A DNA stretch of 64,000 nucleotides from a virus, in IMG/VR virus record IMGVR_UViG_3300032272_000002, positions 96,001-160,000 of that record; one strand, written 5' to 3'. The translations under genes and the position numbers were made by a program. This document shows positions 30,913 through 61,568 of this stretch, in pieces. Each line of letters begins with the position of its first letter. The stretch's first letter is position 1. Under the pieces are notes generated by a model that ran no database searches, was not told where the DNA came from, and was given only the letters and a program-made list of their open reading frames with translations.

Positions 30913-31587
30913 TTACAGGAACTCAAGCTGGAGATAGTAGGCAAAGTTAATCTTACGCCCCGCCGCACCAGGAGTAGCACTGAGGATTAAGTGATAATCG
31001 TGTACGTGTGCTTCGGCAGCTTGGTCATCCAGTGCTAACTCGGCACCGCCGCTTGAAATTTCTGACCACGCAGTATTGCCAGTAAAGTTTTCAGTGTCCG
31101 CAAGCTGAGCGGCCTGTACTGTAATGCCTGTCGCAAGATCCGACACATCGAGCACGTTGTTGTTGGCGTCCAGATTAATAGCACGTAATACAGCCTGCTG
31201 GGTAATAACCGCAGTGCCATTGGGCTCTGTGAATCGTGCAAGTAGTGTGCCAGACTCAGAAGGAATGTTTTCTAGACCAGCAGAAAACGCAACGCCAGAT
31301 ACCTCTGCTAGAGCGGCACCCGTGAACTTTACGTTAATAAACGTCCCTAGGTCAGTGCCAAGCTCATCGGTACGGTGACTACGGTCTTGATATTGACCAA
31401 CAATTACTGGACTACTGGGAGCACCATTTGCACCGAAGAACCCAAGGCGGTTCGGCGTACCAGCGGCGGCGGCACTGTGAAGGTTTACGATCTCAAGAAC
31501 CGGAGTAGCACGGCCTCGGCCATATAGGGAGGCAATCGTGTCACCAACGGCTCCAGAGCCCGAGAAGAATCTAATTCCACTAACCAT
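30913..31587 (-). CDS. Putative virion structural protein
   Basis: Ala/Gly-rich, beta-type sequence with an AAGGA RBS and upstream promoter motif. Confidence 0.65.
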   Translation of the reverse strand: MVSGIRFFSGSGAVGDTIASLYGRGRATPVLEIVNLHSAAAAGTPNRLGFFGANGAPSSPVIVGQYQDRSHRTDELGTDLGTFINVKFTGAALAEVSGVAFSAGLENIPSESGTLLARFTEPNGTAVITQQAVLRAINLDANNNVLDVSDLATGITVQAAQLADTENFTGNTAWSEISSGGAELALDDQAAEAHVHDYHLILSATPGAAGRKINFAYYLQLEFL

Positions 31588-31668
31588 TATATTTTATTCC
31601 TTTTGAAGGAGGAGCTATCCGAGGAATACTACTCAATTCTAGCTATGGCTGAAATACCAACGCTCTAA

Positions 31669-31680
31669 AAAGTACACTAA
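31669..31680 (-). promoter_or_regulatory. Putative late promoter motif TTAGTG-TACTTT
   Basis: One of five intergenic TTAGTGTA copies. Confidence 0.6.
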
Positions 31681-33917
31681 TCAATATCGTGGAGGATACC
31701 CTCCCATGGGAATTCCTCAGGGACACCACCGAATGGAATAGAGGGGGCAGAATGATTTCTGAATCTAGTGCCCTCTACAGCCTCCCAGAAGCTACCTCTC
31801 TCGATAATGCGGAAGAGCCACATGTCATCATCGGCTTGAAAGAACATCCATACACCATCTCTAACATGAGTCGAACCAGTCACTTCAAAGATTTGATGAA
31901 TAATAACCCTGGACGGTGCGATCTGTAGGAACTTTTCTAGACGTGTTGGTTTCGCAGAGTCATGGGTGAATTCACCAGCTTCGTCAGCAGGAGCAGATGG
32001 TTCAACACTGATGCTCCATACGCCGATACCGCTTGATGATCCAGCCCCACCAGTCAATGATAGTAACGGATCTCCCGTTTGAATATTTCCACCGATAGTA
32101 TACAAAAGCTGTGAACCGTCCCAGTGGCGGCGACGAGCAATAGCCGGGCCGCTTCCTAAGAAGGTGCCCGTATGAGTATAGCTGCTATTGAATCTATCGA
32201 TAGTACCATTTTCATTCCATACGTAAATACTACTGCCGTCGTATACGCACCCATCAATCCGTGAATAGGCGACCAGATCAGCGTCTTCGCCAATCATGAC
32301 AAAATTAGCTTCCGTCTCGGCGGCATGGTCTAGTGTTGTTTTATTATATCTCTGAAAAAAGACAGAACGATCAAATTCGTCTAACGCATCGTCTGCATCA
32401 GGCGTCAATACGGCTCGGAAAATTTGACTGACACGCACAAACTGTCCACCAATATCCATAAGTCCCAAATGATAACCGAACGCACCTGGCTGTGGCGGAA
32501 TCGGACGATACCCAGTGGCCGATGGGCCAGTAGAAGCAATAGTTAATTCAGCAGGACGATACCATACTGGAGTTCCTGTGTATGGAGAGATCGGATATAA
32601 GCCACGCGATAAGACTGTGCCTGGCGGGCTAGATTCACCACTGCCATGAGGGCCCGTAGTCCAAATGGCGTCGTTCATAACATGAATACCCAACGCAGAG
32701 TTTTGATCTAACTCGAAAGCATCTCCACCTGAGTTGCCCCTATCAACAAGCTGTTGCCCATCAATTAAATTTGAATTAATGGCGGGAGACAAGTCCGGAG
32801 TACCAGACAGCTTACGCACCTGTCCTTGTGGGAACAGGCTAACGAAACCAGACGGGATCGCAGTAGTCGGCACGTTAGCTTTTGTGTTATGAACTAATAG
32901 GCGGTATAGACCACTTGATTGGACGGTCGGAGTACGGTAGCATCTGGCTGAACTGTCATTCCTGCCAACACCATCACGAACAGCTCGTAAGCCTTGGACG
33001 TGATTTGTATAATCATTAGTAAACGTTACGGTCTGCTCAAAGTTACTATCATTGCCTTTGACTAGCTCCATAGTAGTTTCGGGAAGTAGGCAATAACCAT
33101 CAATCTGTACTACGCCAGATTCTAGGGCGGCAAAATTTGTTTGTAATCTAAACGAACCCGTCACGGTATCTGACTCGTAACGTGAAGCTAATACGCTTGG
33201 GATTGCACCGAGAGTAGTTTGTACAACTGGATACACGGGGCCAAATCTAAACCTAAGGCCATCAGTTGTGCCAGTGAAATTATTTCCAAAGCGAGGGAAT
33301 GGAAAAGGATTGAACACTACTTCGCCACAGTCGATATCATAAATTACGCCAGAGCCACCCAACCAATGGTCATCTGTTGTGGTGATAAAGTCCCCACCAG
33401 TCACATCTTCTAGGGGCGGATGTAAAAAATTGGCCGCGATCAGGCTAAAGATCTGTAGCGGGAAAAAGGGTTGAGCAATAACGTATCCGCCACTAGGGCT
33501 TTCGGGGTATGCCGTTTGTAACCAGGCGATCTTAAAGTCAATTTCTCCATATTGGGAGTCGTCCGCATAGAGATCAAACAGGAAGGTGTCAAACTGGAAA
33601 CGTAACTGTTCAATATTATCGATTGACTCTAACGAATGAACATTACCAACATGCCCTTCAAGCGTATCTCCATTAGCCTTGGGCTCAAAGCCAGACGATG
33701 GAATATCAGGATGAGTATAAAGCTGATACGTAAGAAAATCTAGTTGTTCAAAATTCCACTTACGTAACTCGGCATTGTAGACGAACATAGCCTGCTCAAT
33801 AGTGACACCGGACATACCGATGTTAGGCGTATTAACACCAGGCCATGCACCCTTGGGAGCACGGATGGGTAACGGGGCGTCAAATTCGTAGGGCATTTGC
33901 CCCGATGCAACTACCAT
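31677..33917 (-). CDS. Putative tail/baseplate protein (possible C-terminal beta-propeller)
   Basis: 746 aa, beta-rich, distal tail position. Confidence 0.6.
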   Translation of the reverse strand: MVVASGQMPYEFDAPLPIRAPKGAWPGVNTPNIGMSGVTIEQAMFVYNAELRKWNFEQLDFLTYQLYTHPDIPSSGFEPKANGDTLEGHVGNVHSLESIDNIEQLRFQFDTFLFDLYADDSQYGEIDFKIAWLQTAYPESPSGGYVIAQPFFPLQIFSLIAANFLHPPLEDVTGGDFITTTDDHWLGGSGVIYDIDCGEVVFNPFPFPRFGNNFTGTTDGLRFRFGPVYPVVQTTLGAIPSVLASRYESDTVTGSFRLQTNFAALESGVVQIDGYCLLPETTMELVKGNDSNFEQTVTFTNDYTNHVQGLRAVRDGVGRNDSSARCYRTPTVQSSGLYRLLVHNTKANVPTTAIPSGFVSLFPQGQVRKLSGTPDLSPAINSNLIDGQQLVDRGNSGGDAFELDQNSALGIHVMNDAIWTTGPHGSGESSPPGTVLSRGLYPISPYTGTPVWYRPAELTIASTGPSATGYRPIPPQPGAFGYHLGLMDIGGQFVRVSQIFRAVLTPDADDALDEFDRSVFFQRYNKTTLDHAAETEANFVMIGEDADLVAYSRIDGCVYDGSSIYVWNENGTIDRFNSSYTHTGTFLGSGPAIARRRHWDGSQLLYTIGGNIQTGDPLLSLTGGAGSSSGIGVWSISVEPSAPADEAGEFTHDSAKPTRLEKFLQIAPSRVIIHQIFEVTGSTHVRDGVWMFFQADDDMWLFRIIERGSFWEAVEGTRFRNHSAPSIPFGGVPEEFPWEGILHDID

Positions 33918-36900
33918 TATCCGAATCTCCGCTTAGCAGGTCTTACGATCTCGACAAAGCTTACAACATTTGTCTTTCCAAAACCACCACTCGGCGTAGT
34001 AGTAGACGTTGATAGGTAACCTCGATCACCCGAAGCGGCTAGTTCTGGGAATGGAATAGGAACAACATTTGAGAACGTCTGGCCTGATGCAATTGAAAAC
34101 GAGCCATCTGCATTCAGGCCCAATTCTTTGCAAAATGCTCTGGCGGTGGCTTCACCAACATTGGACGAGATGGAAACAATCTCTACAGCAGTTACGCCAG
34201 CGGCATCTTGAATAGTACCATTCATAAAAATAGTACCATTAGATGCACCGGGAGACACGGGAGCATCTCCCTGTGACACAATAGTAGTCTTATCGCCAAT
34301 TTGAACACTGCCATTCAATACTTCAATGCCGAAGATAGCACGCTCTGTACCGGCGGCGAGAGCAGACGGATCAACAATCGTCACGTCGTACAGGTTGGAG
34401 TCAGCCACGTTAGTACGCTGCACTTCGACAATCGTGCCATTGGCAAACGCTCGTCCTTGTGTGAAGTAACGCTGAATAGAGTTGCCGCCGGGTAGCTCAA
34501 AGTCATCGGTATGATATAAGGCTTCATCTGCTAAGTTTAGGAAGCCATCAATACAGATAGCACCATCTTGGAAGTCTTGCTGTCCACCGCCAAACCCAAA
34601 TGATTTAGACGGCTTCAGGTATTGGTGTTGATCTCTACCGCGATAACGCTCATCTTCTTCTGTGCCAGGAGTACTAGCGAGAGAAAAGACATTGTTTACT
34701 TCAACAATCGTAACGCGAACGGCTCGCTCTTCAGAGTCAAAGAAGGGCGGCGGTACAAACGAATCACCCGGTACGCTTGGGCTCGACGCAGGCGGCGGAT
34801 TCTGATTCAAGAGCTGAAGATCAGTAAAGTCAATTGGGTTAATAATGCCATTCAGAATAGCACGGACACGCTCTCCGAGCGGTGCTTCTTTTCCAAATTG
34901 CGGAAAGTAGCTTTGAATCTTGTAACGGGTAGAGAATCCTGTCTGACCGAAGCTAATGTTAAGCTCACTGACGCCATGGCTAATCTCGCCGTATTCACCT
35001 GAAGTGCCAATACCCTGATCGGCAAACGCATCAAACGACAAGAGTGGCAAGCCTACTTGCTGAAAGTCGCCATAGCGAGAGAAGCTCTTCGGTACAATCT
35101 TGCCTTCGATACGACGCACCGCACGATCAGTCATGATTTGAAGAGACGTTTGGTTACCATCGGGAGAGAACGCCCACGGCACAAATTGGTCATCAAGCTG
35201 TACGTCTTCATCTCGCTCGTAATGGAAGTCTCCCAAGACCCACTGACTTGGATACGTCTGACCATAACGCGAACGAGCCTGAACAGGAATAGCCACGCCA
35301 GAAAGAGAATCGTAAACATTCAGGATCTTGGCCGGGTCTAAAATATCAATCAGACCGGAGCTGCTCAGTTTTGAATTCGTCGTAAGCAGAGTGGCCAAGC
35401 TAGAAATCGTATTGTCTCGAACCAGCCCACCAGACGGACCAGCATTAATTGGCAACTGACACCATAGGGTGCCCTCTGGAAATGCCTCAAAACTGTACAG
35501 GTCATCACTACGTGGGTTAATGACTCGCTGACCGACAATCGTCAAACTGATAGGAATGTAATGCTTACCATCACCAGTCGGGTTGAATGCTGGTGCGTCC
35601 TCAGTCCAATTGCCAAAGCTGGCTGGAACATCGTCGCCCTGCGGGCCATAAATAGTATCTGCTGGTAATACGCAGTGTGCTGCCACGCGGAAGTCATCCG
35701 TCACAAAGGGGCTGATAGGACCAAGCCCTCTATTGATCTCATAATCTTCTACAAATACGCCACTAGACGCCAACGTGCCAGACGCACTGAGCGTGTAACC
35801 CTGAACCTGATTCTCAACGTTGCCCCAGGCCCCTCCTACAAGACGATAAAAGCCAGACGCCTCGTTGAAGAGAATCCCCTCAGCGACATAAGATCTGCCA
35901 TAATGACGAGAAGCATGATTTCTAATACGATTGTAGAATGATAAGGTCCAGTTGTTATTCTCATCTCTTCGATTGCTAATAACACGAAGACCAGAACCTT
36001 CGTTACCTGTCGCCAAACCGGCCAACGGCATGATGGGATCGAGACGACTCTGGAACGTTGGGTGCTGAGCGGCTGTCGCTCCTGGGTCGCCCGTCAATCC
36101 AAATCCGGGAGGATCATCAGTCGTAGCAGTAGTCTGATATCTTTTAAAGTAACTCCACGTCTCAATGCCAGCAAGAGCAAACTGTAGCTCCTTCTCAGAC
36201 GGGATGTACGTACGATAGAAACCATCGGCATCATAGAAGCCAATTGAAAGCTGATCCCAGATCTTAGTAAAGACTACGTTGTTATCAAGGCTTGAGGTGT
36301 CTAGTCCATCGATTGGACTGATAATATCAGAGTTGATAAAACCCTCTTGGTGCCCGCCCAGCACTCTAAAGCGAGTGGGGTCCGACACAACGTCCTGGCC
36401 AAAGCCAATCTGCTTCGTCTCGTTCAGGCCGCTCGCACTGCCAAACTGAGAGACCAAATCTAGGATGTCCGATTCCTCTAGCTCGAACGGCACCTTCTTG
36501 TTGATGATGTTGACACGCTGGTTGTCCATGCCCCAGTACCAATCATAGCCGGTGTCCTGCAATACCCTGGTCAGGGTTTCATCTAGCTGGCTTAGGTTAA
36601 ACTGGAAGCGAATCGCATCTACTGTACCATTGATATTCTGTTCGATCTGAGCAACAGAAGGTAGGATAGAAATCGGCACCGCACAACGACCCTCGTTAAA
36701 AGCAAGGTCGATGGCCGAGAGAACCTGGGCATACGTGCAGCCGAACTGCAAGATTCGCTCGTACTCTTTGATGAGTGGATCAGACGGGTCACCATTGATG
36801 TCGGTCAATCCATTTACCTTGCGATAGGCTCGGGCTACAGAGATCACGCCGCTTGGCACGTCCTCTCCTAAGTCTTCGGTGTGGACCTTAACACGACGAA

Positions 36901-37264
36901 GGCTCTTTCTCTCGTCCTCGACGGTGACTTTAACTACTGTGCCATTAATACTTGACGTATAGTCTGCATGGGTAATGACGCCACGAACTAGGAAGTCGCC
37001 AATAAATACCTCTAACGAATGGCCGATACGTGGTAGTTGTCCAGAGGCACCGTGGAATTCGCACGCCTCTCCGCATGGTACCCATTCTGTGTTGAAGGAG
37101 TGGGGAGTTAGATTAAAACCAAATGTAGAGTTGACAGACGACAAGAACGCACAGAGTTGCGATGCGGGTTGCCCTGGGGCAAACTGTCCGGAAGGCCACT
37201 CGATACCATTCAGCGGGGCTCCAACGCCGCTAACAACAATGCCGTCGCTTACTACAATATTCAT
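33917..37264 (-). CDS. Putative baseplate hub / tail tip protein
   Basis: 1115 aa downstream of the tape measure, with hub-like N-terminus (VTVEDER, GYDWYW). Confidence 0.6.
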   Translation of the reverse strand: MNIVVSDGIVVSGVGAPLNGIEWPSGQFAPGQPASQLCAFLSSVNSTFGFNLTPHSFNTEWVPCGEACEFHGASGQLPRIGHSLEVFIGDFLVRGVITHADYTSSINGTVVKVTVEDERKSLRRVKVHTEDLGEDVPSGVISVARAYRKVNGLTDINGDPSDPLIKEYERILQFGCTYAQVLSAIDLAFNEGRCAVPISILPSVAQIEQNINGTVDAIRFQFNLSQLDETLTRVLQDTGYDWYWGMDNQRVNIINKKVPFELEESDILDLVSQFGSASGLNETKQIGFGQDVVSDPTRFRVLGGHQEGFINSDIISPIDGLDTSSLDNNVVFTKIWDQLSIGFYDADGFYRTYIPSEKELQFALAGIETWSYFKRYQTTATTDDPPGFGLTGDPGATAAQHPTFQSRLDPIMPLAGLATGNEGSGLRVISNRRDENNNWTLSFYNRIRNHASRHYGRSYVAEGILFNEASGFYRLVGGAWGNVENQVQGYTLSASGTLASSGVFVEDYEINRGLGPISPFVTDDFRVAAHCVLPADTIYGPQGDDVPASFGNWTEDAPAFNPTGDGKHYIPISLTIVGQRVINPRSDDLYSFEAFPEGTLWCQLPINAGPSGGLVRDNTISSLATLLTTNSKLSSSGLIDILDPAKILNVYDSLSGVAIPVQARSRYGQTYPSQWVLGDFHYERDEDVQLDDQFVPWAFSPDGNQTSLQIMTDRAVRRIEGKIVPKSFSRYGDFQQVGLPLLSFDAFADQGIGTSGEYGEISHGVSELNISFGQTGFSTRYKIQSYFPQFGKEAPLGERVRAILNGIINPIDFTDLQLLNQNPPPASSPSVPGDSFVPPPFFDSEERAVRVTIVEVNNVFSLASTPGTEEDERYRGRDQHQYLKPSKSFGFGGGQQDFQDGAICIDGFLNLADEALYHTDDFELPGGNSIQRYFTQGRAFANGTIVEVQRTNVADSNLYDVTIVDPSALAAGTERAIFGIEVLNGSVQIGDKTTIVSQGDAPVSPGASNGTIFMNGTIQDAAGVTAVEIVSISSNVGEATARAFCKELGLNADGSFSIASGQTFSNVVPIPFPELAASGDRGYLSTSTTTPSGGFGKTNVVSFVEIVRPAKRRFG

Positions 37265-40200
37265 TGGTCGTGCCCCGACTCTAGTGTGTCACACCATAAG
37301 AAGCCTCGCGTATCACGCACGCACCAGACTGGCTTGTAAATACCTGGCTGAGTATATGCGTGGGTCGGATTGAAGGCTGTGGTTGTCTGCCCGTCATCAA
37401 ACAGTAGAAGCTGCGTGGAGACGCCGACGCCAGGCGGTAGTGAATCTACGTTAGTATCAAAGTCAACGATCAGTGAGGCGTTACCGGAACGAGGTACGCC
37501 AGAGATTGTCACGATGACCTCGGGGATGCCAGAGGCCACATTGATAATGCGTGTGGCTGAATTGTGAATACCGTTAGAGTCAATCGCTTCAAACTTAGCG
37601 ATGAAAATACCACTGCTGGCGTAGCGATGTTGGGTTGCATAACAGCCCGCCCCACTTTCAGCCACACTGACTGTTGGCGATAGGTCACCAAACGTCCAGC
37701 GTGTCTGCGTGATAGACTTGCCCTGTAGGCCAGACGCCTTACCGATGAAGTACTGGTTGAATGGAGGCACAAGTCCGGTAACGGTATCGCCAGGAATAAT
37801 GATCCCAACCTCAGGCGGCTGTTCCGACTGAAACACAATCAGCTTCGCATCGAAGTCAGATGTATTTTCCTGTCTTGCTTCTAAGATAGCATCGAAGTCT
37901 TGAGCGGCGATGGCCTGCACGGTATACGAGGTGTCAAATTGTAGGTTACCCTGAAGGCCACCGAGCATCCAACCACCAATCATTCCAGACGCCTGAATAC
38001 TACCTTGGATATAGCCGCCCAAGATGCCACTTCCGGGGGTAGAGCCAACAACGTATCCACCGATCATCCCAGAACCAACATCGCCACCACGCATCAGGCC
38101 GCCGAAGACGCCAGAGACAATCTCAGAGCCCGTTAGGTAACCACCAATATGGCCAGAGCCAAAATCAAGACCTTGAACATAAGCACCGATATGACCAGTA
38201 CCAAATACAACACCGGAAACAAAGCCGCCAATAATGCCGCTTACTTGAATAGATCCATCTACGAATCCACCAACAATACCTGACCCAGTGTCTTGCCCCT
38301 GTAAATAACCAGCAACAATACCAGAACCAGTATCTTGACCATGAACATAGCCACCAATAATACCGCTTGTCTCAGTGCCTACTGCGTTGTCAATACCGTT
38401 CATCGCAATGTATCTTACTTCGGGCTCTGTTAATACACGAGAGAAGTAACATACGTCTGTAAATACAGATTCCAAATCTGCCATGTTTGTTTGAAAGAAC
38501 GTCCAGGGCGTCGTTTCCGACTGTTGATGCGTTTTGAATGTAATCATCCTATGTGCTGGATTCAGTGGCACCTGAGGACGAATAGGAAGTCCATTAAATG
38601 GATTTTGTAATTGTTCTCCATCTGAAGCGTATGCATTAACTTTTTGTTGGTCAACAAGTACGCCATTTAAATACATGCGTAATCCACTGCCTTGATTTGG
38701 CTGAGGATCATAAACCCAACAATAGTGATCCCAAAAAGCTACACTTGGAGAAACTGACTGCCCCTGAGAGTATGTATTAAATGATCTTAGATCACTTGGC
38801 GAGTATGTGAATGGTACAACTTGAGCAGTAATCTGACCAGACTTAGAAGTATTATTACCAGTATCTAGGTACATATTACCACCAAGTGAAATGGTCATCT
38901 TATATGATTCGTTGTCATCGCTATAGATTGCCCATCCACGATCAGGTGAGCGGTCAGTAGCAGTAATAGTACCAGCCGTTGTGCTTGTTAGGGCACCATA
39001 GCACATAAATACATCAGCACCATTATTCGGCAAAGCAAAATTTCGTTTCGCCATTAGGAATCCAACAGAGAACCCCTCGTATGGTGTATCAAACGCTGCT
39101 CCAGACACGGCAAAAATAGGCAACTGATCCGTGGAATTAGCAGTTAGAGCAGAATCACTTTGAAAATGAAAGCCACTACACTGTACGCCCAGGTCTGAGT
39201 TGAGGTGAGGGCCGGGAATAGCACGAACAAGTTCTGCCGTTTCTACGCCCGTTTGTTCATTCTCCCAATAACGCTGAGCAATCGCGTCTAAATGATTAGC
39301 CTTAAAGCTTAGGTCCGTTGTGCCAGAGCCACCAGGGCTCTGAGTCATCTGGCCAACGTTTCCATCAAAACCATTAAATCTCCAGTAGCCTTCTAAATTA
39401 CTATCGGCAATACTAACTTGTGTTGTTGGAAGCTGTGAAACAAAACCAGGAATAGATGGATTCTGAATACCACTAACAGCTAGTGCTTCTACTTCGCTCT
39501 TTTCGAAAATACCACGCATGATAAAAATTTCACGCATGTAAATTTCACCTAAGCCAGCATCATCATCAACCGCCTCAATAATACTATCAGTACCCGCGTA
39601 GCCACCAAACTGCGGCAGCCAATTTGCCGTAGTGCCTGGTAAGGTAATATCTGACCAAAGATCTAAATCAGTAGCAGGACCACGACGAGCATTTACCTTT
39701 TCTCCATCAATCCAAAGCGTAATGTCAATAGGAGCCGAACCAATAGTATACTGATTAAATGCATATGGCTCCGGAAACTTCATGTGGAATAAAACCTTAT
39801 TAGGAATTCCATATGATAATGTTCCTGAAATCAGAGGTTCGTGTCCTGCGGCAGAATCTGTATTACGTGACGCAAAAACAATGGTAACGCCAGATGGTCC
39901 CGTCAAAGCATCAGCTCCTGCCGGATCTGGGTCAGTCGCATGAATGGATGTTAACATCGCATACAATTCACCATCCGAAGTGCCATCGCCCATGTCTCCT
40001 ATATTGAAAATACGAGAATTGAAAAATCTTTGCTGGAGGTTGTCTGTTTGATCTGACATTTCAAGTGGCTGAATATTACCACTCGGCGTCACTTCGAATG
40101 AAACTAACCACTCGTGCATACTCTGTGGTTGCAATACCGGCGACTCTGTAGCGGGACGATAACGGGCCGACAAATTAAACGGCGTATTCCGAACCGTGGC

Positions 40201-42345
40201 ATTATTAGTATTATTAAAACTAGCAAATGTCGAAAAACCCTGCGTACAGAAAACGCCAGAAGTGATGCCTAAGTTGCCAAACGTCTGTTGAAGCTCGTCT
40301 GGTGCTCGTGTTTCACCAGTAAATAAATCAGTATATGCTGTACCATCATTACGAAAAATAGTCTGGTCATTATTGTGCGGGAAAACTCTATCCCATTTAG
40401 TTTCACTATGACCTCGAACCAAATGTCCAAGCACAGGAGACATAGAGCGTGCTCTATCTTCTGATGCAAACACATCGCCTAAATCAAATGTGTCACAAGG
40501 CCAATAACCAAGCAGGCGAGGATCGTGCGGGGTTCTCCATAGCGACGATGTAGTAATACCGCTTTGAGCCATTGCACGCATTTCATCAGCACGTACTGGT
40601 CTGGATAAAACTGCGGTAGCACCAATAGTAGAGCCAACACCGCCATCTCCAAACACGCCCTTGCTAGTTGCACTGTTTTGCAGATCATCTGTGACGCCAT
40701 TCATGAACATGAGCGGATATCCACTACCGGCCAATTTATATAGCTGATCCTGTAAATCAAATTCTAATGTGCCACTTGCTGCTTCATACCCATCAACATA
40801 AAGAGCAACACCCATACTAGCTCGATCATAAATAAAACCGTAATGAACATCCACGCCACGAGTCATGTCCCTGCCCTCAGCACGCATTAGGACACTATCT
40901 TCACCAAAGCCCCTAGGCCATACTTCTGCCGTTACATGGTCACCACCATTGAAGGGGAAATAAGATAGGGCAAATCCCATTGAGGCCCCGGTAAGGCTCG
41001 TTGTCGTTCCAGAGGAATTAATGGAGGTGCCTACAGAACCCCAGCTAAACATCATGCACTCATCACGACCATTTGTTACGCCGCGAAGCTGAAAACGACC
41101 GGCAATCGTAAAGCCACCAGCGGCTTCTGCAATATCATAGCAAGCACCACTTGGCATTGCTAATTGATCGGAAGCTATAGAAGCATTAAAGTTTCTACTA
41201 GTGTTAAACGGTCCAGGGGCATTAGTCCACATGTTCTGATCGCCCGGATCTAATTGACTAGTTAAGTTGTAATGATTTGCACTAGCATCTACTGTGATAT
41301 AATTTTTACCTTCATAATAAGCCACAAGATTAGAGTCAGTAATCTCAATAGCTGTATTATGATCGTGTAAACCAATATCATATTGCAGGCCACCGCATTG
41401 GTGTAAGTCTAGTACTTCAGAGTCGCTTAAGACACGACGGAAATGATAGACACCAGATACTAAATGACCCCAGCCGCTAGCAAACTCATAAGAATCGGTA
41501 CTAGAAGCTCCATCGGTACCGGCCCCAAGGACAAGAGGATAATTACCAACAATAGAACCTAGTACTAAGTCTTGAGTAGTTGTAGCCTGTGTTACTAGAT
41601 TCCCATCTTTATAGAATTTAATAACATTGAAGTCACTATCAACATATTCAAACGAAAATGTTAAGTGAGTATATCGTCCAGCCTCAATGGGCGAACTCAT
41701 TCTAGCAACTTCGCCAAAAGCAACATCTACGTGTGCGTAACCCGCCAAAGTATGAGGGCCACCAAATTCAGAATTGTTAAATTGAGCAGCACCAGCAAGC
41801 TCACCTGATACGCCAATCCACCAACCGATATCAGCCCCAAATTGTCCCATAACAGGATGAACACGAGCATTAAGTTTCTCCCACGGGTCTGTGGCACTGG
41901 GGAGCCATCCAGCAGACCCAACAACGTCAGTCCAACCGTCGCTCTGTGGGTATACCCAAACACCAGCAGTAAAGCCACTACCAGCAATAGTTTTACTTAG
42001 CGTATCATTTCTGTGGTGTCGAGAGCCATTACCTAAGACTAAAACATTAGAAAACGGATCACTCGCACCGGAAACAATTCTATCGTTTTCACCTCGTAAC
42101 TTTAAACCACGATAAGTAACGCCTGATTCTAGATTGAAAACAATCTCTTGACCAGGCCATGGGCTACTCATGGTATCAGTGGCGGGAGTGCCTTGTGAGT
42201 CGGCAACATGAACGTGCATATCAAATGATAGTCCACTGGGATGACCGGCCCGAGCGGGAGAATAGTTCTTCCACGACGGAGCACCACTAGGCTCATGCAG
42301 AGGCCAGAAACCAACCAGGCTACCATCGTCGATTAAGTTAGACAT
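37261..42345 (-). CDS. Large virion adhesin/fibre: four LamG-like (ConA) modules, a 14-aa repeat stalk and two PKD-like domains
   Basis: Module starts DxxLxGyW, module ends RvlxxxEv; PKD WTFGD..HRYASSG and FDDG..NPTHAYTQPGIY. Confidence 0.75.
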   Translation of the reverse strand: MSNLIDDGSLVGFWPLHEPSGAPSWKNYSPARAGHPSGLSFDMHVHVADSQGTPATDTMSSPWPGQEIVFNLESGVTYRGLKLRGENDRIVSGASDPFSNVLVLGNGSRHHRNDTLSKTIAGSGFTAGVWVYPQSDGWTDVVGSAGWLPSATDPWEKLNARVHPVMGQFGADIGWWIGVSGELAGAAQFNNSEFGGPHTLAGYAHVDVAFGEVARMSSPIEAGRYTHLTFSFEYVDSDFNVIKFYKDGNLVTQATTTQDLVLGSIVGNYPLVLGAGTDGASSTDSYEFASGWGHLVSGVYHFRRVLSDSEVLDLHQCGGLQYDIGLHDHNTAIEITDSNLVAYYEGKNYITVDASANHYNLTSQLDPGDQNMWTNAPGPFNTSRNFNASIASDQLAMPSGACYDIAEAAGGFTIAGRFQLRGVTNGRDECMMFSWGSVGTSINSSGTTTSLTGASMGFALSYFPFNGGDHVTAEVWPRGFGEDSVLMRAEGRDMTRGVDVHYGFIYDRASMGVALYVDGYEAASGTLEFDLQDQLYKLAGSGYPLMFMNGVTDDLQNSATSKGVFGDGGVGSTIGATAVLSRPVRADEMRAMAQSGITTSSLWRTPHDPRLLGYWPCDTFDLGDVFASEDRARSMSPVLGHLVRGHSETKWDRVFPHNNDQTIFRNDGTAYTDLFTGETRAPDELQQTFGNLGITSGVFCTQGFSTFASFNNTNNATVRNTPFNLSARYRPATESPVLQPQSMHEWLVSFEVTPSGNIQPLEMSDQTDNLQQRFFNSRIFNIGDMGDGTSDGELYAMLTSIHATDPDPAGADALTGPSGVTIVFASRNTDSAAGHEPLISGTLSYGIPNKVLFHMKFPEPYAFNQYTIGSAPIDITLWIDGEKVNARRGPATDLDLWSDITLPGTTANWLPQFGGYAGTDSIIEAVDDDAGLGEIYMREIFIMRGIFEKSEVEALAVSGIQNPSIPGFVSQLPTTQVSIADSNLEGYWRFNGFDGNVGQMTQSPGGSGTTDLSFKANHLDAIAQRYWENEQTGVETAELVRAIPGPHLNSDLGVQCSGFHFQSDSALTANSTDQLPIFAVSGAAFDTPYEGFSVGFLMAKRNFALPNNGADVFMCYGALTSTTAGTITATDRSPDRGWAIYSDDNESYKMTISLGGNMYLDTGNNTSKSGQITAQVVPFTYSPSDLRSFNTYSQGQSVSPSVAFWDHYCWVYDPQPNQGSGLRMYLNGVLVDQQKVNAYASDGEQLQNPFNGLPIRPQVPLNPAHRMITFKTHQQSETTPWTFFQTNMADLESVFTDVCYFSRVLTEPEVRYIAMNGIDNAVGTETSGIIGGYVHGQDTGSGIVAGYLQGQDTGSGIVGGFVDGSIQVSGIIGGFVSGVVFGTGHIGAYVQGLDFGSGHIGGYLTGSEIVSGVFGGLMRGGDVGSGMIGGYVVGSTPGSGILGGYIQGSIQASGMIGGWMLGGLQGNLQFDTSYTVQAIAAQDFDAILEARQENTSDFDAKLIVFQSEQPPEVGIIIPGDTVTGLVPPFNQYFIGKASGLQGKSITQTRWTFGDLSPTVSVAESGAGCYATQHRYASSGIFIAKFEAIDSNGIHNSATRIINVASGIPEVIVTISGVPRSGNASLIVDFDTNVDSLPPGVGVSTQLLLFDDGQTTTAFNPTHAYTQPGIYKPVWCVRDTRGFLWCDTLESGHDQ
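37960..38376 (-). repeat. About 10 tandem 14-aa repeats xxx[GVA][ST]G[IHMV][IVFL][GA][GA][YFLW]xxG (degenerate at DNA level)
   Basis: QDTGSGIVAGYLQG, QDTGSGIVGGFVDG, SIQVSGIIGGFVSG, VVFGTGHIGAYVQG, LDFGSGHIGGYLTG and others. Confidence 0.9.
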
Positions 42346-42823: not shown

Positions 42824-42867
42824 TTTTACCTTACTCCCGAGACTAAACCGAAGCTATGCCTCGTAAG

Positions 42868-42879
42868 AGATTACACTAA
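42868..42879 (-). promoter_or_regulatory. Putative late promoter motif TTAGTG-TAATCT
   Basis: Intergenic copy directly after a terminator U-tract. Confidence 0.6.
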
Positions 42880-42911: not shown

Positions 42912-42938
42912 AGATTATGAGCCAAAAGGCTCAGTCAC

Positions 42939-43203: not shown

Positions 43204-43204
43204 C

Positions 43205-43849
43205 TTAAGGTGCTCCGAACTGTAAAAGGTAGTCGTTGTTATAAAAATTAAACAACAGACCTAGACGCACGATACCTGAGCCACAGATGCCATACTCGCC
43301 CAGCGGGAATCCCCACGGAACAACTAAATTTAAATACACAAACTGAGAGGCATTCTGGTCGTCATTACTGATGAGAACCTGGGCCCCATCCTGCCTGATG
43401 ACATTCGGATTAGCTGGAATACTCGTCGTGAGACGTTCACCCTCTCCCGAGCCCCACACTGGGTTGGGCTGCCAGGTGCCACTCGCACGAAACTGAAGAA
43501 AGGCGGGATCTTGACCAACGCTATTGGCTGGGATAGTAAGTCCTGTATCGTCTGCGAGATATAGCTTTAAATCAGAAATACCAGAACCAGTGCCCCCGAC
43601 ACCAATCGTAAGGGCAGTAATCTTAGATCCCTTATTATCGGGTGGTACGCCATTAACGATCTCAAATTTTAACCCTTCGAATACGATGGTTCCTGATGTG
43701 CCACCTGGGTTTGCCGACGACGCAGTAGAGCAGCCTAGGGCCACCCTCTGTTTGAACGCAAATGAGCCACCCGGAATATGCCGCGTCCCAACAGGACTGG
43801 CAACCTCCGCTGTGTCATACTCAAAGATACGTACGTCAGGCTGTGTCAT
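43205..43849 (-). CDS. Putative tail/baseplate structural protein (paralog of 44030..44590)
   Basis: Shared PDV..., SQ[FY]VxLxxxVxxxxPxGxYGxxG.G pattern. Confidence 0.65.
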   Translation of the reverse strand: MTQPDVRIFEYDTAEVASPVGTRHIPGGSFAFKQRVALGCSTASSANPGGTSGTIVFEGLKFEIVNGVPPDNKGSKITALTIGVGGTGSGISDLKLYLADDTGLTIPANSVGQDPAFLQFRASGTWQPNPVWGSGEGERLTTSIPANPNVIRQDGAQVLISNDDQNASQFVYLNLVVPWGFPLGEYGICGSGIVRLGLLFNFYNNDYLLQFGAP

Positions 43850-54386: not shown

Positions 54387-55799
54387 TTAGAAGATACCTA
54401 GGTCACTCCGTCTGAAGGACGGAGCACCGACGTTGAATCGACTGTTACCAGTTTCGAACACCAAAACTCGGTGGTTCGGCTGGAACAAGTCGTGCGAAAC
54501 GTTGAAGACGTTGAAGGAACTGTAGTTATACGTGATGGTCATGTTATCACCACCAGCGTCACCACCGCCCATTTCAACACTCGTCAGACGGTTCGCGTCC
54601 CCAAGGTCAACTTGGAGACCGTCACAAGTACGGAGAATGATTGTGTTAGATTCGGACGTGTTGTCCGGACCACAGTCAATATCCGATGTAGCGTCGATCA
54701 GGTCACCTTGAGAGGTGATAACTTCAACCGAGGCAGTAGCTTCCAGCGGGAAGGCAGGAACCTTCACGAATGGACGCTTGGAGCCAAGCTCGAAGATGTC
54801 GTCACGGGCCACAGAGAACGAAACCGTAATCGTCTGAATGTGCTCTAGGATGTTGTCCGTGTTGGCATCGCCAATTAGCTGGCTAGTGCCAGCAAGCGTA
54901 CCAGGACCCTGAGCACCGAAGCCGCCATTTACAAAGGCGGAATCAATACCAGACGCGGCGAATTCAATCATACCGGGAATGTCTGCCGGTAGAACCGAAC
55001 GTCGAATGTCGATTTCTTCACGACGCTGGATACCAGAGCCAACGATGATAACACCGAAGCGGTCAGTACCACCAGCAAGCTCAGCAGCACCACCTTCGAC
55101 AAGAGCCGAAGTCAGTCCGTCGTGACCGAAGACACCAGAAGGCGTACCTTCAGGGGCGTTCGGGTTGTTACCGAGTGCGTCATCAGGCCAGATAACCAGC
55201 GGCTCGCCACCGTTACCAGCATTATGACCAGCAGTAACACCAGATACCGCCTCAATAGCACCCCAAATCTTGTCGTTACCAACCAGGGTGATGTCTTCAC
55301 TTACGAAGCCATCAATAGGGAAGGTATACGAAATATTCGAGACGTACATGCCAGACGCCGTTACAATAGATAACGGTCGGCCAGTAGCACGGAATTGAGT
55401 ATCCGGATAAATTTGCATAGTGACATCGACCCGATAATTCGCAGTACGAGCAACGATATCATTCGCCGCAGTCGGATCAGTCACCATAAAGAATAGGGCT
55501 TTCGTACCATCGATAGCCTTAGAGAGAGTCATCTCAATATCGGGCTGACGCTCAGAGTACTCATAGATTTCTACCTGACCAAGCTGGAACGTTTGCTCCA
55601 GATTGAAAGTAGTGCTCATACCAGCACTTTGAAGGCCGCGAGGTACCTCCCACAGTCCACCCACTTGGTCCACACCGGACGCCAGAGTGCCTGTTGAATA
55701 TTCGAGGGCTCCGAGCGAGGCAACCGTACTCGTTGCCGCAGCAGCATTATCTTTAATCGCTACCTGCTCAATCGCCCAAAATACACGATTGTTAACCAT
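54387..55799 (-). CDS. Major tail (tube) protein
   Basis: Two tube-like halves (TTFNLEQTFQLGQ / ARDDIFELGSKRP), strong AAGGAGG RBS, position before chaperones and tape measure. Confidence 0.75.
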   Translation of the reverse strand: MVNNRVFWAIEQVAIKDNAAAATSTVASLGALEYSTGTLASGVDQVGGLWEVPRGLQSAGMSTTFNLEQTFQLGQVEIYEYSERQPDIEMTLSKAIDGTKALFFMVTDPTAANDIVARTANYRVDVTMQIYPDTQFRATGRPLSIVTASGMYVSNISYTFPIDGFVSEDITLVGNDKIWGAIEAVSGVTAGHNAGNGGEPLVIWPDDALGNNPNAPEGTPSGVFGHDGLTSALVEGGAAELAGGTDRFGVIIVGSGIQRREEIDIRRSVLPADIPGMIEFAASGIDSAFVNGGFGAQGPGTLAGTSQLIGDANTDNILEHIQTITVSFSVARDDIFELGSKRPFVKVPAFPLEATASVEVITSQGDLIDATSDIDCGPDNTSESNTIILRTCDGLQVDLGDANRLTSVEMGGGDAGGDNMTITYNYSSFNVFNVSHDLFQPNHRVLVFETGNSRFNVGAPSFRRSDLGIF

Positions 55800-55889: not shown

Positions 55890-56915
55890 TTAGAACCCCG
55901 TATCACCAATGGTTGGGATAGTAGAAATAGGTCCAAAAACATGCCCAAGCGGTGTCGTCGGGGCGTTAAGATAAACAGAAATATTAAAATCTACTACAGC
56001 ACGTTCGTATTCCTCATCGGGTGGAACATTTTCCGCCGTAACTTCATCAATATAAGCTGTATATCGAACTGGAGCACCAGATCCCACGGTCGTAACCAGG
56101 ACATTATTTCTAAGCATGTCTTGGTACGGCACGTACTCAGGAGATAAGGTGTTGAAGATCCCAGATAACGGCAGTGGTGCTCGATTAAAATCAAGCATAG
56201 GCACAGCCTTTCGCATTTGGGATGTAAGGATATCTACAATATTATCTCGCTCCATGTCATCTACTGCCCAGACATGCAAGCGAAGAGTATCCTTAATGAT
56301 AAGACTTCGGTTACCCAGTTCGAATGCATCAAACGATCTGTCAGTAACCTCTAGGAATACCGCTGGGAATGGATACAATAATCCAGACGGGTAGACCAAG
56401 TTATTTGAAGTAAGCGGGTTGCTCTTGTATTTGTTCTCGATGACACTGGTTTGATACTGCTGATTAAACTGGTGTTCGAAAGTAGTTCTTACTTCTCGTG
56501 CTCCGAAGTCCGCATTGACCTGGAGAGTGAGCGGTTGTGGAGAGTTGAAGATGATTCTACCGTTAGTAAAATCGCGAGTGTGCCCAAACTCAGCATCATC
56601 AGGAGTGCGAAAAGCACCCTCAATATATAGGCCAGAGGCAACAATAGGAGGGTCAATAACCCGCGTACCATCGATTGGTACATCCGCTTCATAAATCCAT
56701 TCTCTAAATGGTGACTGCCACACTTGGCCATTGCTAATTCCCCCGAGGATATCATCAGCGTCAGTGTCTGGTAATAGAACACTCATATCGCTGCCGTCGT
56801 AAAACTGAGTGCCACTAGTAATGTTTATAAAGGCACCCTCTCGGAGCATATGCATGTCCAAGAAGAACTTAAAATTCAGCTTCAGTAGTGCTTTGAGCTT
56901 GAAGTCTAGTGCCAT
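55890..56915 (-). CDS. Putative tail terminator / neck protein
   Basis: PAVFLE..FELG..LHVWA..ERDNIVD pattern; position before the tail tube gene. Confidence 0.55.
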   Translation of the reverse strand: MALDFKLKALLKLNFKFFLDMHMLREGAFINITSGTQFYDGSDMSVLLPDTDADDILGGISNGQVWQSPFREWIYEADVPIDGTRVIDPPIVASGLYIEGAFRTPDDAEFGHTRDFTNGRIIFNSPQPLTLQVNADFGAREVRTTFEHQFNQQYQTSVIENKYKSNPLTSNNLVYPSGLLYPFPAVFLEVTDRSFDAFELGNRSLIIKDTLRLHVWAVDDMERDNIVDILTSQMRKAVPMLDFNRAPLPLSGIFNTLSPEYVPYQDMLRNNVLVTTVGSGAPVRYTAYIDEVTAENVPPDEEYERAVVDFNISVYLNAPTTPLGHVFGPISTIPTIGDTGF

Positions 56916-57459: not shown

Positions 57460-57460
57460 A

Positions 57461-60378: not shown

Positions 60379-60703
60379 TTCGCAATACCATTTTAATGTT
60401 TTCAACCTTCCGTTTAGATGGCCACTTACTCTCATAAGTAATATCTAGTGCGGACAGGATCTTATCTAATTTTTCACTTGGAAGATAACGAAGCTCACTG
60501 TATCGAAATGCCAACTCGGGGAACGGTCTATTAAACAGCTTAGTTAAATAACCTTCTCTATAAGTGGCATCTACCAAGACATCTTTATGTGCCTCATATA
60601 CTTCATACGGTAGATCGATTGGAGCACGATTCCAGTACATGCCAGGGATACGATATCTGCCTGCATGAATGATGCCGTTGGGGTTTTTGGCGTAGACTAG
60701 CAT
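60359..60703 (-). CDS. Hypothetical protein
   Basis: 114-aa ORF packed in the head-tail region. Confidence 0.65.
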   Translation of the reverse strand: MLVYAKNPNGIIHAGRYRIPGMYWNRAPIDLPYEVYEAHKDVLVDATYREGYLTKLFNRPFPELAFRYSELRYLPSEKLDKILSALDITYESKWPSKRKVENIKMVLRNVSPAN

Positions 60704-60704
60704 T

Positions 60705-61568
60705 TTACCAGATAAATTTTCCGTAATTGCCAGTCTGACGATTGAGGAACGCCTTGATGGCCGCTTCCAGTTCTTTCTCGCGAGTCTGTACGTCCAGGCG
60801 ATGCAGCGTGGTACGACTCTGTAGACGGCCAGCCGAGATGTCGATGGTCACACCATCAGCATTCTTAACCATAATACCGTCGTTCGCCAAAGATGAAGCA
60901 CCAGCAGCGAATGGACCAGATGCAGCAAAGCGTTTCCACGCTGAAGTCTCTGACGTGATAATGACATATTCCATCATGAGAATAATCAGATCACAAAGCT
61001 CGTCGTTGTTGGGAGTAATAGTACCCGCTTCTACATCTAGGGTCAGCTCTCCAACTTGAATACGAGGTCCACCGAAGTTACCCGGAATGCCCAGTGGGCG
61101 AGAGGTACGAGACAGTCCTAATCTCTGGTTCAGTCTACGAACAGATTTAATAAGTACCCTCTTCAGGAAGTCGTCGTCGAATGTGTTGCCATCGGGGTCT
61201 CCGATGTCGATTCGCACGGCTTCATAGATTGTACCCGTTTTGTCAGCGGCAGGAACGAAGCCAATAGAGATGGTGGCATCGTTGACGCAGAATGGCTCTG
61301 ACGCATTAACTAGGCTGCCACCAGCAGTGATAACGTCCCAGTCTACCCGCCACGTACCAAGCTGGAAACCAGCCGGGATCACGCCACTCGCTGTGTACGT
61401 ACCAAGAGCAGGATTAATAGCAATCCCACTAACGGCAGAGGCTCCAGCGGCGTCGAATAACTCAAACCCCACATACTGTCCACTGACGGCTACACCACCA
61501 GCCGATAGAAAAATATCAAGGCTAGTAGCGTCTGCACCTACAGTTAAAATTTTTGTCTCACCGGCCAT
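60705..61568 (-). CDS. Putative head-tail adaptor with N-terminal Ig-like (BppU-like) domain
   Basis: Beta-sandwich N-terminus (GTY..GTWRVDW), then VRIDIGD..FDDDFL, typical of connector proteins; follows the capsid gene. Confidence 0.6.
   Translation of the reverse strand: MAGETKILTVGADATSLDIFLSAGGVAVSGQYVGFELFDAAGASAVSGIAINPALGTYTASGVIPAGFQLGTWRVDWDVITAGGSLVNASEPFCVNDATISIGFVPAADKTGTIYEAVRIDIGDPDGNTFDDDFLKRVLIKSVRRLNQRLGLSRTSRPLGIPGNFGGPRIQVGELTLDVEAGTITPNNDELCDLIILMMEYVIITSETSAWKRFAASGPFAAGASSLANDGIMVKNADGVTIDISAGRLQSRTTLHRLDVQTREKELEAAIKAFLNRQTGNYGKFIW

Follow-up and report, generated by a model that had tools for sequence, protein, structure and literature searches.

A conserved Ser-Gly motif in the tail proteins of an uncultured phage as a possible acceptor site for virion O-glycosylation

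The window analyzed here is a 64,000-nucleotide stretch from the 170-kb genome of an uncultured phage. It carries a glycan island and a long series of virion genes (Table 1). Earlier work had placed such an island at 1-19 kb, and domain assignments bear it out, with at least nine soluble glycosyltransferases (GTs) among its products. Predicted membrane segments were sought in the island proteins, and none were found other than a single marginal stretch of hydrophobic residues in the HAD hydrolase. The island core has syntenic orthologues in G001, G002, G004 and G005 (40-70% identity) and is conserved to the same degree as the structural genes; orthologues of the variable end are patchy or absent in the relatives.

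Table 1. Island and virion features in the window. SG, Ser-Gly dipeptides observed/expected; GS, Gly-Ser dipeptides observed; Conservation, SG serines vs other serines.
Feature	Position	Strand	SG	GS	Conservation	Remarks
Variable island end	1..4660	-				Pfam: epimerase/dehydratase-type, sulfotransferase, methyltransferase, nucleotidyltransferase, HAD phosphatase
Conserved island core	4661..17289	-				Pfam: methyltransferase, seven further GTs, GMP-reductase/IMPDH-like gene, small tagged ORFs
339-aa GT2-like transferase	14073..15092	-				among best-conserved island genes (close relatives 63-70%)
607-aa GT4-like glycosyltransferase with DUF4214 domain	17280..19103	-				Pfam; adjoins sigma factor and DnaE
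224-aa tail protein	30913..31587	-	6/1.8	1	0.79 vs 0.36	
746-aa tail or fibre protein	31677..33917	-	13/5.8 (z 3.3)	9		no Pfam or PHROG match
1115-aa conserved tail-tip protein	33917..37264	-	16/9.9	4	16/16 invariant in four relatives vs 0.46	no family match; called hub in the earlier note
1694-aa adhesin-like tail protein	37261..42345	-	40/18.5 (z 5.5)	20	0.83 vs 0.28 (mean identity 43%)	Pfam Laminin_G_3 (ConA-like lectin) and PKD
14-aa tandem repeat in adhesin	37948..38367	-	10 observed			residues 1327-1453, ~10 copies; unit ~S-G-I-I-G-G-Y-V-x-G-x-x-x-x, period 14
214-aa tail protein	43205..43849	-	5/2.2	5		
186-aa tail protein	44030..44590	-	6/1.9	4		
504-aa distal-tail-protein-like (Dit-like)	44590..46104	-	11/3.8	3	0.91 vs 0.53	immediately after tape measure
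1704-aa tape measure, internal	46108..51222	-	5/9.6			SG-poor contrast
470-aa major tail protein (tube or sheath-like)	54387..55799	-	6/4.1	2	all invariant	
341-aa neck or tail-proximal protein	55890..56915	-	5/1.2	2	all invariant	
287-aa head-associated protein	60705..61568	-	4/2.1		0.88	adjoins capsid gene
Major capsid protein	61661..62692	-	0/1.4			weak match to phage G major head protein

The earlier note had counted SG and GS dipeptides by hand, and on recount its figures proved exact. We compared these counts with within-protein shuffles that keep composition. The tail-tip block (eight ORFs at 30913-46104, 4844 aa pooled) contains 97 SG against 44.1 expected (observed/expected, O/E, 2.2; z 9.1), making SG the first outlier among all 400 dipeptides, with a runner-up at a z of only 4.1. 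The excess is one-directional, with GS at an O/E of 1.05, and turn-type pairs sit at expectation (NG 1.04, DG 1.06, TG 0.93, PG 1.00). The motif also has preferred flanks, a small residue at -1 and a hydrophobic one at +2. V, I, L or F follows the glycine in 53% of cases (51 SG[VILF] vs 11.6 expected, z 12), and the longer form [AGPV]SG[VILFT] is enriched 8-fold (37 vs 4.5 expected, z 14.6). Outside the tail tip, SG has an O/E of 1.19 in the head, neck and tape-measure block and 0.88 in the non-structural block (2-30803); DnaE holds 3 SG. The tape measure is SG-poor and has no SG[VILF], as in the relatives, whose capsid proteins likewise have 0-2 SG. In control phages, the T4 baseplate shows no excess (1.03), and the lambda tail proteins, which have no GT, show 1.58 alongside raised NG (1.39) and DG (1.59). 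Serine precedes 0.19 of glycines in the tail block vs 0.08-0.13 in T4 and lambda, but Asn and Asp precede glycine as often as they do in those phages (0.05 and 0.06-0.08), indicating that SG sites were added rather than swapped. We conclude, in support of the earlier note, that the SG excess is real, extends beyond composition and is confined to virion proteins; generic turn content does not account for it either.

The same pattern recurs in the diverged lineages G006, G009 and G411 (SG 102/48, ~96/47 and 96/49), all of which encode an orthologue of the 1115-aa tail-tip protein. Orthologues of the 186-aa protein are SG-rich too (7/1.5 in G006, 6/1.6 in G009), as are those of the 341-aa neck protein across all lineages (6/1.4 to 6/2.1). 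The excess is weak in G419 and G420, though both carry the 607-aa GT.

Beyond the earlier note, we found that the serines of these sites are conserved, and only in virion proteins. In the tail-tip proteins, 81% of SG serines (84 sites) are invariant across four relatives vs 21% of other serines (271; p 5e-19). The non-structural proteins of the same genomes show no such difference, whether as invariant serines (28% vs 25%) or as conservation at 60 SG sites (0.45 vs 0.40, p 0.19). SG serines of the fibre cluster (0.54 vs 0.19) and of the neck and tube proteins likewise exceed other serines in conservation. A profile computed without the adhesin tandem repeat has a two-residue spike at Ser (0.81) and Gly (0.88) between flanks of ~0.5. 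Asp, Asn, Thr and Pro preceding Gly are less conserved (0.42-0.66), and the SG serine outdoes even Trp, Gly or Pro, with Thr taking its place in just 6 of ~500 cases. Several serine codons occur at 58 of 65 SG sites, and the TCN and AGY families both occur at 14; because codons vary freely at conserved sites, selection acts at the protein level. The sites are fixed in position with little turnover, apart from 2-3 independent local shifts. The lambda J family, which is about as diverged, lacks the spike (0.37 vs 0.41). We conclude that the Ser and Gly of SG are under strong, site-specific and virion-specific purifying selection, as expected from a sequon and not from a compositional habit.

To place the sites in a fold, we used an AlphaFold model of the 504-aa Dit-like protein (pLDDT 87), whose N-domain matches Dit of 80alpha, TP901-1 and SPP1 (Z 9.9, 9.3 and 8.8). 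The earlier note had expected SG in exposed loops. Judged by secondary structure in this one model, 8 of the 11 sites are coil, one is a strand end and two lie in helix. Such mixed contexts, which take in hairpin loops, one long disordered loop, a loop ahead of a helix, the end of a strand and the interior of a helix, speak against one shared structural motif. Sites 62, 209, 253 and 371 are ancient, and distant homologues show these four interchanging with Asp, Asn, Thr or Pro, residues that commonly form turns. Across the family of this protein, very distant phages included, the median SG O/E is 1.8.

GTs are present in every complete relative. The 607-aa protein, which matches GT4 enzymes in a PDB profile search, occurs in 7 of 7 complete relatives, even where capsid identity falls to 46%, and adjoins DnaE in all four lineages read (the window, G006, G008 and G009). 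It has more than 1200 homologues, six of which carry intein or LAGLIDADG domains. Judged by gene content, it belongs to the core genes of the entire phage family, and we regard it as a candidate initiating transferase. The 339-aa GT2, with matches in G411, G412 and G006, is a second candidate; we did not find it in G420 or G419, whose SG excess is the weakest. Because all relatives carry both the island and the SG sites, no evidence ties one to the other, and the co-occurrence of motif and transferases may reflect shared ancestry. The earlier note had also proposed a fucosylated, methylated and sulfated glycan on SG sites, which is not supported as integral to the motif: within 1-4600, the sulfotransferase gene, the nucleotidyltransferase/HAD genes and one of the methyltransferase genes are absent or not conserved in relatives whose SG sites persist.

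Several known systems invite comparison. The animal proteoglycan site, recognized by xylosyltransferase, has a minimal Ser-Gly core with a strict serine, a required adjacent glycine and acidic flanks. The phage motif shares the core and the strict serine, but its flanks are small and hydrophobic, and no xylosyltransferase-type domain is among the island's Pfam matches. The motif resembles the animal sequon without being a member. Chloroviruses and other giant viruses encode a large set of their own soluble GTs and of enzymes that modify sugars, with no genes for membrane export among them, and the island here similarly has soluble GTs without membrane proteins. Those are eukaryotic viruses, however, that glycosylate mainly the capsid protein, partly on Asn, and the weak match of a GT profile to PBCV-1 B736L (E 5e-3) shows homology no further than the generic GT-B fold.

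Among bacterial systems, TibC/AAH enzymes O-glycosylate many serines, and not threonines, of the beta-rich adhesins TibA and AIDA-I in the cytoplasm (PMC4358343). The system predicted here from sequence would share the multiple sites, the preference for Ser over Thr, the cytoplasmic location and a surface adhesin as substrate. TibC is described as iron-containing, and the 607-aa GT has four invariant cysteines (C306, C309, C334 and C337). In contrast, the candidates here are GT4-like and GT2-like, and a search of this genome and its close relatives for a GT9/heptosyltransferase domain found none; the distant G006 alone has two. The putative substrates also differ, being phage tail proteins of several folds rather than a beta-helix passenger domain. 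Of the mapped TibA sites, one is in N-S-G-G and a second in T-S-A-A (PMC4358343), so SG is not the rule of that family. Mycobacteriophages provide another parallel, as they O-glycosylate virion proteins with phage-encoded GTs (PMC12619734, citing Freeman et al. 2023). There, too, the phage brings its own GTs and the target, proposed in our case, is the virion itself. The phage virion glycans described in that paper are carried by the C-terminal ends of capsid and tail-tube subunits (PMC12619734), whereas the capsid here lacks SG and the motif of this predicted system is internal, with ~100 sites per genome, mostly in tail tip, fibres and neck.

What, then, maintains the motif? That the pattern is an artefact, whether of composition, of repeats within the proteins or of a signal in the DNA, was tested and not supported, and we give it practically no weight. 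The tail proteins are rich in Ser (8.5%) and Gly (10.8%), and ten of the adhesin's 40 SG lie in its tandem repeat; however, the excess survives composition-preserving shuffles that leave GS unenriched, both the excess and the conservation spike persist without the repeat, and SG is written with 21 different codon pairs from both serine families. It is also very unlikely that SG stands in for Asn-Gly and Asp-Gly in the turns of particles that last long outside the cell, where it would avoid deamidation and isoaspartate. NG and DG are at expectation in the tail block and raised in lambda, as this would predict, but the unchanged share of Gly after Asn or Asp speaks for addition, and Ala, Thr or Pro would serve as well as the invariant Ser. 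It is improbable that the motif guides a serine modification other than glycosylation (phosphorylation, acylation or the work of an enzyme of the host) or lets an assembly chaperone dock. Nothing in the evidence for selection is specific to sugars, and most tail genes, like many others, have no family assignment. Yet we identified no candidate kinase, acyltransferase or chaperone in the genome, ~100 sites would be many for docking, and the GT island is the only large conserved enzyme set in the genome that lacks a known target.

A clade-specific structural role deserves more attention, although we consider it rather doubtful. In beta-rich tail proteins of this family, Ser-Gly-hydrophobic would be the preferred transition from a loop into a beta-strand; its Ser, unmodified, would cap the turn through a hydrogen bond from the side chain and be kept for folding or assembly. 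Like the beta-turn dipeptides Asn-Gly, Asp-Gly, Pro-Gly and Ser-Gly, the motif has a small polar residue before its Gly and lies mostly in loops that lead into strands. The fixed positions of the sites, the frequent hydrophobic residue after Gly and the coil sites of the Dit-like model, often right ahead of a strand, fit this role. Three further observations favor it and weigh against a glycan: the four ancient sites swap with turn formers, the Dit-like excess reaches phages far outside the clade, and lambda tails are enriched without a GT. On the other hand, SG alone is raised and conserved here while the canonical pairs are not, and the effect is missing from the same phages' enzymes, the T4 baseplate and, as a conservation spike, lambda J. 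Two sites lie within confident helix, and Thr rarely replaces a Ser that is conserved beyond Trp, Gly and Pro. A turn also gives no reason why only the virion proteins of this family should need it.

Our tentative preference is that SG is an acceptor motif for O-glycosylation or another Ser-directed modification, most plausibly O-glycosylation by the phage's GTs. We hold this reading with reserve, since SG is missing from the capsid shell, which is more exposed than any other protein, the sites hardly move, and the island could instead serve modification of the host surface or of DNA. We infer the serine modification, its glycan nature and the identity of the starting enzyme. The short linear motif small-Ser-Gly-hydrophobic is selected in outward-facing virion proteins, from the distal tail and tail tip to the fibres, the neck and the tail tube, and not in tape measure, capsid shell or enzymes. 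The serines would be modified inside the infected cell, ahead of assembly. One conserved transferase, either the 607-aa or the GT2 candidate, may add the first sugar to the serine hydroxyl, with the following Gly giving space in the active site; the remaining conserved GTs would lengthen the chain, and the variable 1-4600 genes might decorate it differently in each strain. Thus, the SG pattern fits the attachment sites of a sugar coat that the phage would make with its own enzymes.

The hand counts of Ser-Gly (SG) dipeptides in the earlier note were each reproduced exactly, and its proposal that the dipeptide exceeds composition was borne out. Pooled over the eight tail-tip ORFs, SG was counted 97 times, and shuffles that preserve composition gave 44.1 (z 9.1), while the second-ranked dipeptide reached only z 4.1. 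GS stands at expectation in the same ORFs; the note had set the surplus of SG over GS against simple composition. Observed/expected (O/E) ratios were 1.19 in the head, neck and tape-measure block and 0.88 in the non-structural genes. The tail-tip sites share the context [G/A/P/V]-S-G-[V/I/L/T/F]. Within the tail tip, SG[VILF] occurs 51 times (11.6 expected) and the full four-residue motif 37 times (4.5 expected); the motif is found 14 times in head, neck and tube proteins (3.3 expected), 17 times in the 34,195 residues of non-structural protein (13.1 expected) and never in the tape measure. A tandem repeat with a 14-residue period contains ten of the adhesin sites, and the result does not depend on it. 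Additionally, a second SG-rich cluster lies outside the window, at 74-84 kb of the genome (59 SG, 29.7 expected). It corresponds to locus L064 3332-10312, on the minus strand, with fast-evolving ORFs of 976, 216, 265, 244, 232 and 382 aa; these ORFs have no family match and probably encode fibres.

The source IMG/VR record is 169.7 kb long (the window is bases 96001-160000), and every gene of the window is on the minus strand. The weak match of the capsid gene to the phage G head protein was its only one in 50,697 phage records, among which no cultured phage resembled the structural block and none carried the Dit-like gene or the 607-aa glycosyltransferase (GT). The lineage is thus uncultured. 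No structural protein matched PHROGs, and nearly all structural genes lack a family in Pfam and PHROGs; the adhesin contains a ConA-like lectin domain and PKD domains. The sigma-70 region-2 gene directly adjoins the 607-aa GT, and both it and the ClpP-family protease, which sits among the replication genes, are kept in close relatives. Two ORFs overlapping by about 110 bases lie just upstream of the tape measure, the usual place of tail-assembly chaperones made by programmed frameshift.

Features of the window, in window coordinates
Feature	Position	Strand
Glycan island	1-19.1 kb	-
499-aa ORF	7827-9326	-
GMP-reductase/IMPDH-family gene	9313-10374	-
GT2 glycosyltransferase	14073-15092	-
Small island ORFs	15089-15499; 15496-15882	-
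607-aa GT4-like glycosyltransferase	17280-19103	-
Sigma-factor-like gene, DnaE, ClpP-like protease, replication genes	19.1-30.8 kb	-
Sigma-70 region-2 protein	19106-19792	-
ClpP-family protease	24267-24884	-
Eight tail-tip genes	30.9-46.1 kb	-
1694-aa adhesin	37261-42345	-
504-aa Dit-like protein	44590-46104	-
1704-aa tape measure	46.1-51.2 kb	-
Overlapping ORF pair	51215-51865; 51756-52577	-
Tail, neck and head genes, up to the capsid gene	beyond 51.2 kb	-
Capsid gene	61661-62692	-

Contigs of this phage family are abundant in freshwater or wastewater samples, and some also appear in metagenome-assembled genomes (MAGs) of GTDB (L069-L072). Contigs of 155-158 kb, filed under Hydrogenophaga and Omnitrophota, carry the family's transferase and Dit-like gene, and shorter ones are assigned to Balneolaceae and Phycisphaerales. 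Mis-binning of phage contigs with bacterial genomes is the most likely reason, and the host hints from all four labels were therefore dropped as giving no evidence of a host. We found no prophage copies in 400 genomes sampled from one MAG's phylum.

The same SG excess is present in nine IMG/VR relatives whose Dit-like proteins show 62-71% identity. We aligned all 87 orthologue sets from four whole relatives and compared serines inside and outside SG.

Mean conservation of serines in four whole relatives, with the invariant share in brackets
Gene group	SG sites	SG serines	Other serines	p
Tail tip	84	0.86 (81%)	0.39 (21%)	5e-19
Fibre cluster, genome 74-84 kb	39	0.54	0.19	2e-6
Head, neck, tube and tape measure	46	0.66	0.40	4e-5
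Non-structural	60	0.45 (28%)	0.40 (25%)	0.19

The contrast holds in the fibre cluster at a mean identity of 31% among the relatives compared, and no SG varies in the 470-aa tube-like protein or the 341-aa neck protein. In tail proteins, serine before glycine (0.89) is more conserved than aspartate (0.51), asparagine (0.66), threonine (0.42) or proline (0.62) in that position, and outranks even tryptophan, glycine and proline at large. The conservation profile is a spike two residues wide with flat flanks. Serine changes to threonine in only 6 of about 500 comparisons, while its codon varies among relatives at 58 of 65 conserved sites, with both codon families in use at 14. The lambda J family, at similar divergence, has no such spike (0.37 for SG serines, 0.41 for others). 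The SG sites are fixed in position, not mobile; an apparent local compensation for lost sites (13, with 3.6 expected) reduced to two or three independent events that may be alignment shifts, and was set aside. Virion-specific, serine-specific purifying selection over two residues is what one would expect of a modification acceptor. Neither composition nor generic turns would lead one to expect it, and the internal controls came out clean.

The pattern extends deep into the phage family, of which the capsid protein picked out roughly 280 relatives in IMG/VR. The Dit-like protein, run through a full HMMER search, returned 276 cluster representatives; their SG O/E holds at 2.5-2.7 until identity falls to 28%, and is about 1.7 in the remotest matches (median 1.8). 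At four of its 11 SG sites (62, 209, 253 and 371), 30-50% of distant homologues have SG and the rest have Asp, Asn, Thr or Pro before glycine's place; the remaining seven sites are lineage-specific. Among diverged relatives, G006 (36% GC, capsid 45% identical) has 102 SG with 48 expected, G009 about 96 with 47 and G411 96 with 49. All three share the window's genome architecture, and in none of them do the tape measures or enzymes exceed expectation. The excess is present but weaker in G419 and G420. One 20-kb stretch had made G412 and G419 appear SG-poor, a reading that whole-genome tables overturned: G412 is SG-rich elsewhere, notably in its adhesin (30, with 13.5 expected), and G419 is a weaker case. 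The tail genes of one locus, L016, are SG-poor (8, with 12.4 expected) over a known stretch of 28 kb. We found no SG-poor relative with a long contig reaching the GT region, the available contigs being short or ending before it, and no IMG/VR counterpart of the homologues P0021, P0035, P0094 and P0123.

The Dit-like protein allowed the sites to be placed on a predicted structure. An AlphaFold model built from 67 sequences reached pLDDT 87, compared to 48 from eight sequences. The gene directly follows the tape measure and its N-terminal domain is tail-tube-like, both as in Dit proteins; by VIA-align this domain matches the Dit of 80alpha (Z 9.9, rmsd 3.1, 117 aligned), TP901-1 (Z 9.3) and SPP1 (Z 8.8). 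Foldseek gave no match to the model at E <= 0.001, Pfam and PHROGs gave no sequence family, and a PDB sequence search with the family returned nothing useful. The earlier note expected exposed loops. In the secondary structure of this model eight sites are in coil: 62 in a loop ahead of a helix, 138, 141 and 253 in hairpin loops, 209 in a disordered loop, 332 and 334 in a long loop, and 371 in a loop right ahead of a strand. Of the other three, 105 is at a strand end at a hairpin and 306 and 321 are within a helix. Because these contexts are mixed while all 11 sites are equally conserved in close relatives, the model, a single prediction, suggests that the SG sites may not be one structural device.

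The glycan island is, as proposed, rich in phage-encoded glycosyltransferases, with at least nine GT domains in 4661-19103. Pfam also identifies three methyltransferases, a sulfotransferase, a nucleotidyltransferase and a HAD phosphatase, and an epimerase/dehydratase-type gene at the island's end is truncated by the window edge. All four close relatives keep genes 4661-19103 in synteny, at 40-70% identity, whereas genes 1-4600, including the sulfotransferase, are patchy there. The 607-aa GT, which has more than 1200 homologues, a profile match to GT4 enzymes and four invariant cysteines (C306, C309, C334 and C337), alone among the island genes has firm orthologues in G006, G008, G009, G411, G412, G419 and G420; it adjoins DnaE in the window and in G006, G008 and G009. 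As a single sequence it retrieved nothing useful from the PDB. Intein-splicing or LAGLIDADG domains occur in six of its top 120 homologues (P0197, P0203, P0204, P0206, P0260 and P0261; 946-981 aa), and the copies in G009 and G413 are about 1020 aa. Inteins are unusual in a glycosyltransferase and suggest an essential, highly conserved gene. The GT2 enzyme is 63-70% identical in close relatives and has matches in G411, G412 and G006. No copy was found in G420 and G419, where the SG excess is weakest, which is a hint drawn from only about one evolutionary contrast.

Several other island genes deserve mention. The GMP-reductase/IMPDH-family gene (E 2e-92) sits amid the GT run and is kept in all close relatives, G006, G412 and G420. 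The 499-aa ORF in the island core has no Pfam or PDB match and no orthologue in the relatives examined, and looks like a strain-specific insertion. The two small ORFs end in F-D-L-G-G-A-L and F-E-I-G-G-A-L and have no blastp orthologue in the four close relatives. A smaller island in G006 (92-104 kb; L067 4012-5091) has a TnpB/IS605-type gene, an MT-A70 methyltransferase and two GT9 domains, none of which occurs in the clade of the window.

How does this arrangement compare with known systems? The nearest working analogy is TibC/AAH, GT9-type heptosyltransferases with a four-cysteine metal finger that form a ring-shaped dodecamer. They act in the cytoplasm, on serine only, and one of the many sites that they modify on a beta-rich adhesin is in N-S-G-G (PMC4358343). 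The SG pattern, known here from sequence alone, agrees with such an acceptor (97 sites in eight proteins, threonine rare). The defining GT9 domain, PF01075, was not found in the window's genome (G000) or its close relatives G001, G002 and G005; it occurs only in the distant G006, and the GT9 link to TibC was dropped. Like mycobacteriophages that glycosylate their virions, this phage encodes its own glycosyltransferases. Mycobacteriophage glycans are reported to lie on the C-terminal ends of capsid and tail-tube subunits (PMC12619734); unlike those sites, the motif here is internal and chiefly in tail-tip proteins, and the capsid protein has no SG. The likeness to the animal proteoglycan sequon drawn in the earlier note extends to the Ser-Gly core but not to its acidic flanks, since the window motif has A/P/G/V at -1 and V/I/L/T at +2. 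Membrane steps characterize the undecaprenyl-linked Wzx/Wzy pathway, and none is encoded in the island: no Pfam family for a flippase, polymerase or initiating phosphotransferase of that type was found, and none of the 24 ORFs has membrane-protein character, with one marginal hydrophobic stretch over threshold in the HAD hydrolase. Host enzymes could supply such steps instead.

Several explanations for the SG excess do not rely on modification. Composition and repeats are ruled out by the shuffles and a repeat-free conservation profile, and a DNA-level motif by the 21 codon pairs that encode SG and the drift of codons at conserved sites; the chance of an artefact is negligible. Generic beta-turn composition should raise NG, DG and PG together with SG. 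In the tail-tip proteins serine alone is raised before glycine (SG 2.18; NG 1.04, DG 1.06, TG 0.93, PG 1.00), whereas lambda tail proteins show SG at 1.58 along with NG at 1.39 and DG at 1.59, a generic turn signature, and T4 baseplate and fibre proteins show SG at 1.03 and SG[VILF] at 0.73. These ratios, with residue-Gly conservation, rule out turn content. Chemical durability, in which Ser-Gly would stand in for Asn-Gly or Asp-Gly, is very improbable: the Asn/Asp share before glycine in the window and the distant G006 equals that in T4 and lambda, while the serine share is higher (0.18-0.19 vs 0.08-0.13), and the SG sites are therefore additions, not substitutes.

A structural motif peculiar to this family would account for sites that are fixed in position and, in some cases, are ancient turn positions; it fits less well with the mixed contexts predicted for the Dit sites, and we consider it unlikely, though a serious rival. 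Some other recognition function is improbable. That SG is a serine-directed acceptor motif, most likely for O-glycosylation, is a reading we adopt tentatively, at slightly less than an even chance. Virion-specific selection on serine argues for it. Against it, nothing ties sugars to the serines, the core GT is also present where the excess is weak, the sites are fixed, some are ancient turn positions and the capsid shell is motif-free; weighing these against the selection led us to that estimate. Transferases are present in 7/7 complete relatives, so none of these could serve as a negative control.

Big clusters of sugar genes are common in large aquatic phages, and the host surface, DNA and the virion have been proposed as their targets. 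It is possible, though we hold this more doubtful than the acceptor motif itself, that these large, uncultured aquatic phages form a widespread family whose own system O-glycosylates tail, neck and fibre proteins in the cytoplasm, directed by a sequon. A core transferase, either the 607-aa GT4-like enzyme with its putative four-cysteine finger or the GT2 enzyme, would recognize the small-Ser-Gly-hydrophobic motif on about a dozen such proteins, and the glycan coat, with decoration that varies by strain, would be completed by about eight more GTs of the phage. The four-residue motif marks about 100 near-invariant serines of the outer tail, while neighboring residues and the serines of enzymes drift freely. 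Should glycosylation fail as the explanation, the pattern would be an unexplained but strongly selected structural rule. If it is true, it would be a first for bacteriophages: a protein glycosylation system defined by a sequon, with a new type of signal and a new family of transferases that act on proteins. Such a system would explain the purpose of large phage glycan islands and mean that phage tails can be sugar-coated, with bearing on host recognition, stability and adsorption in nature.
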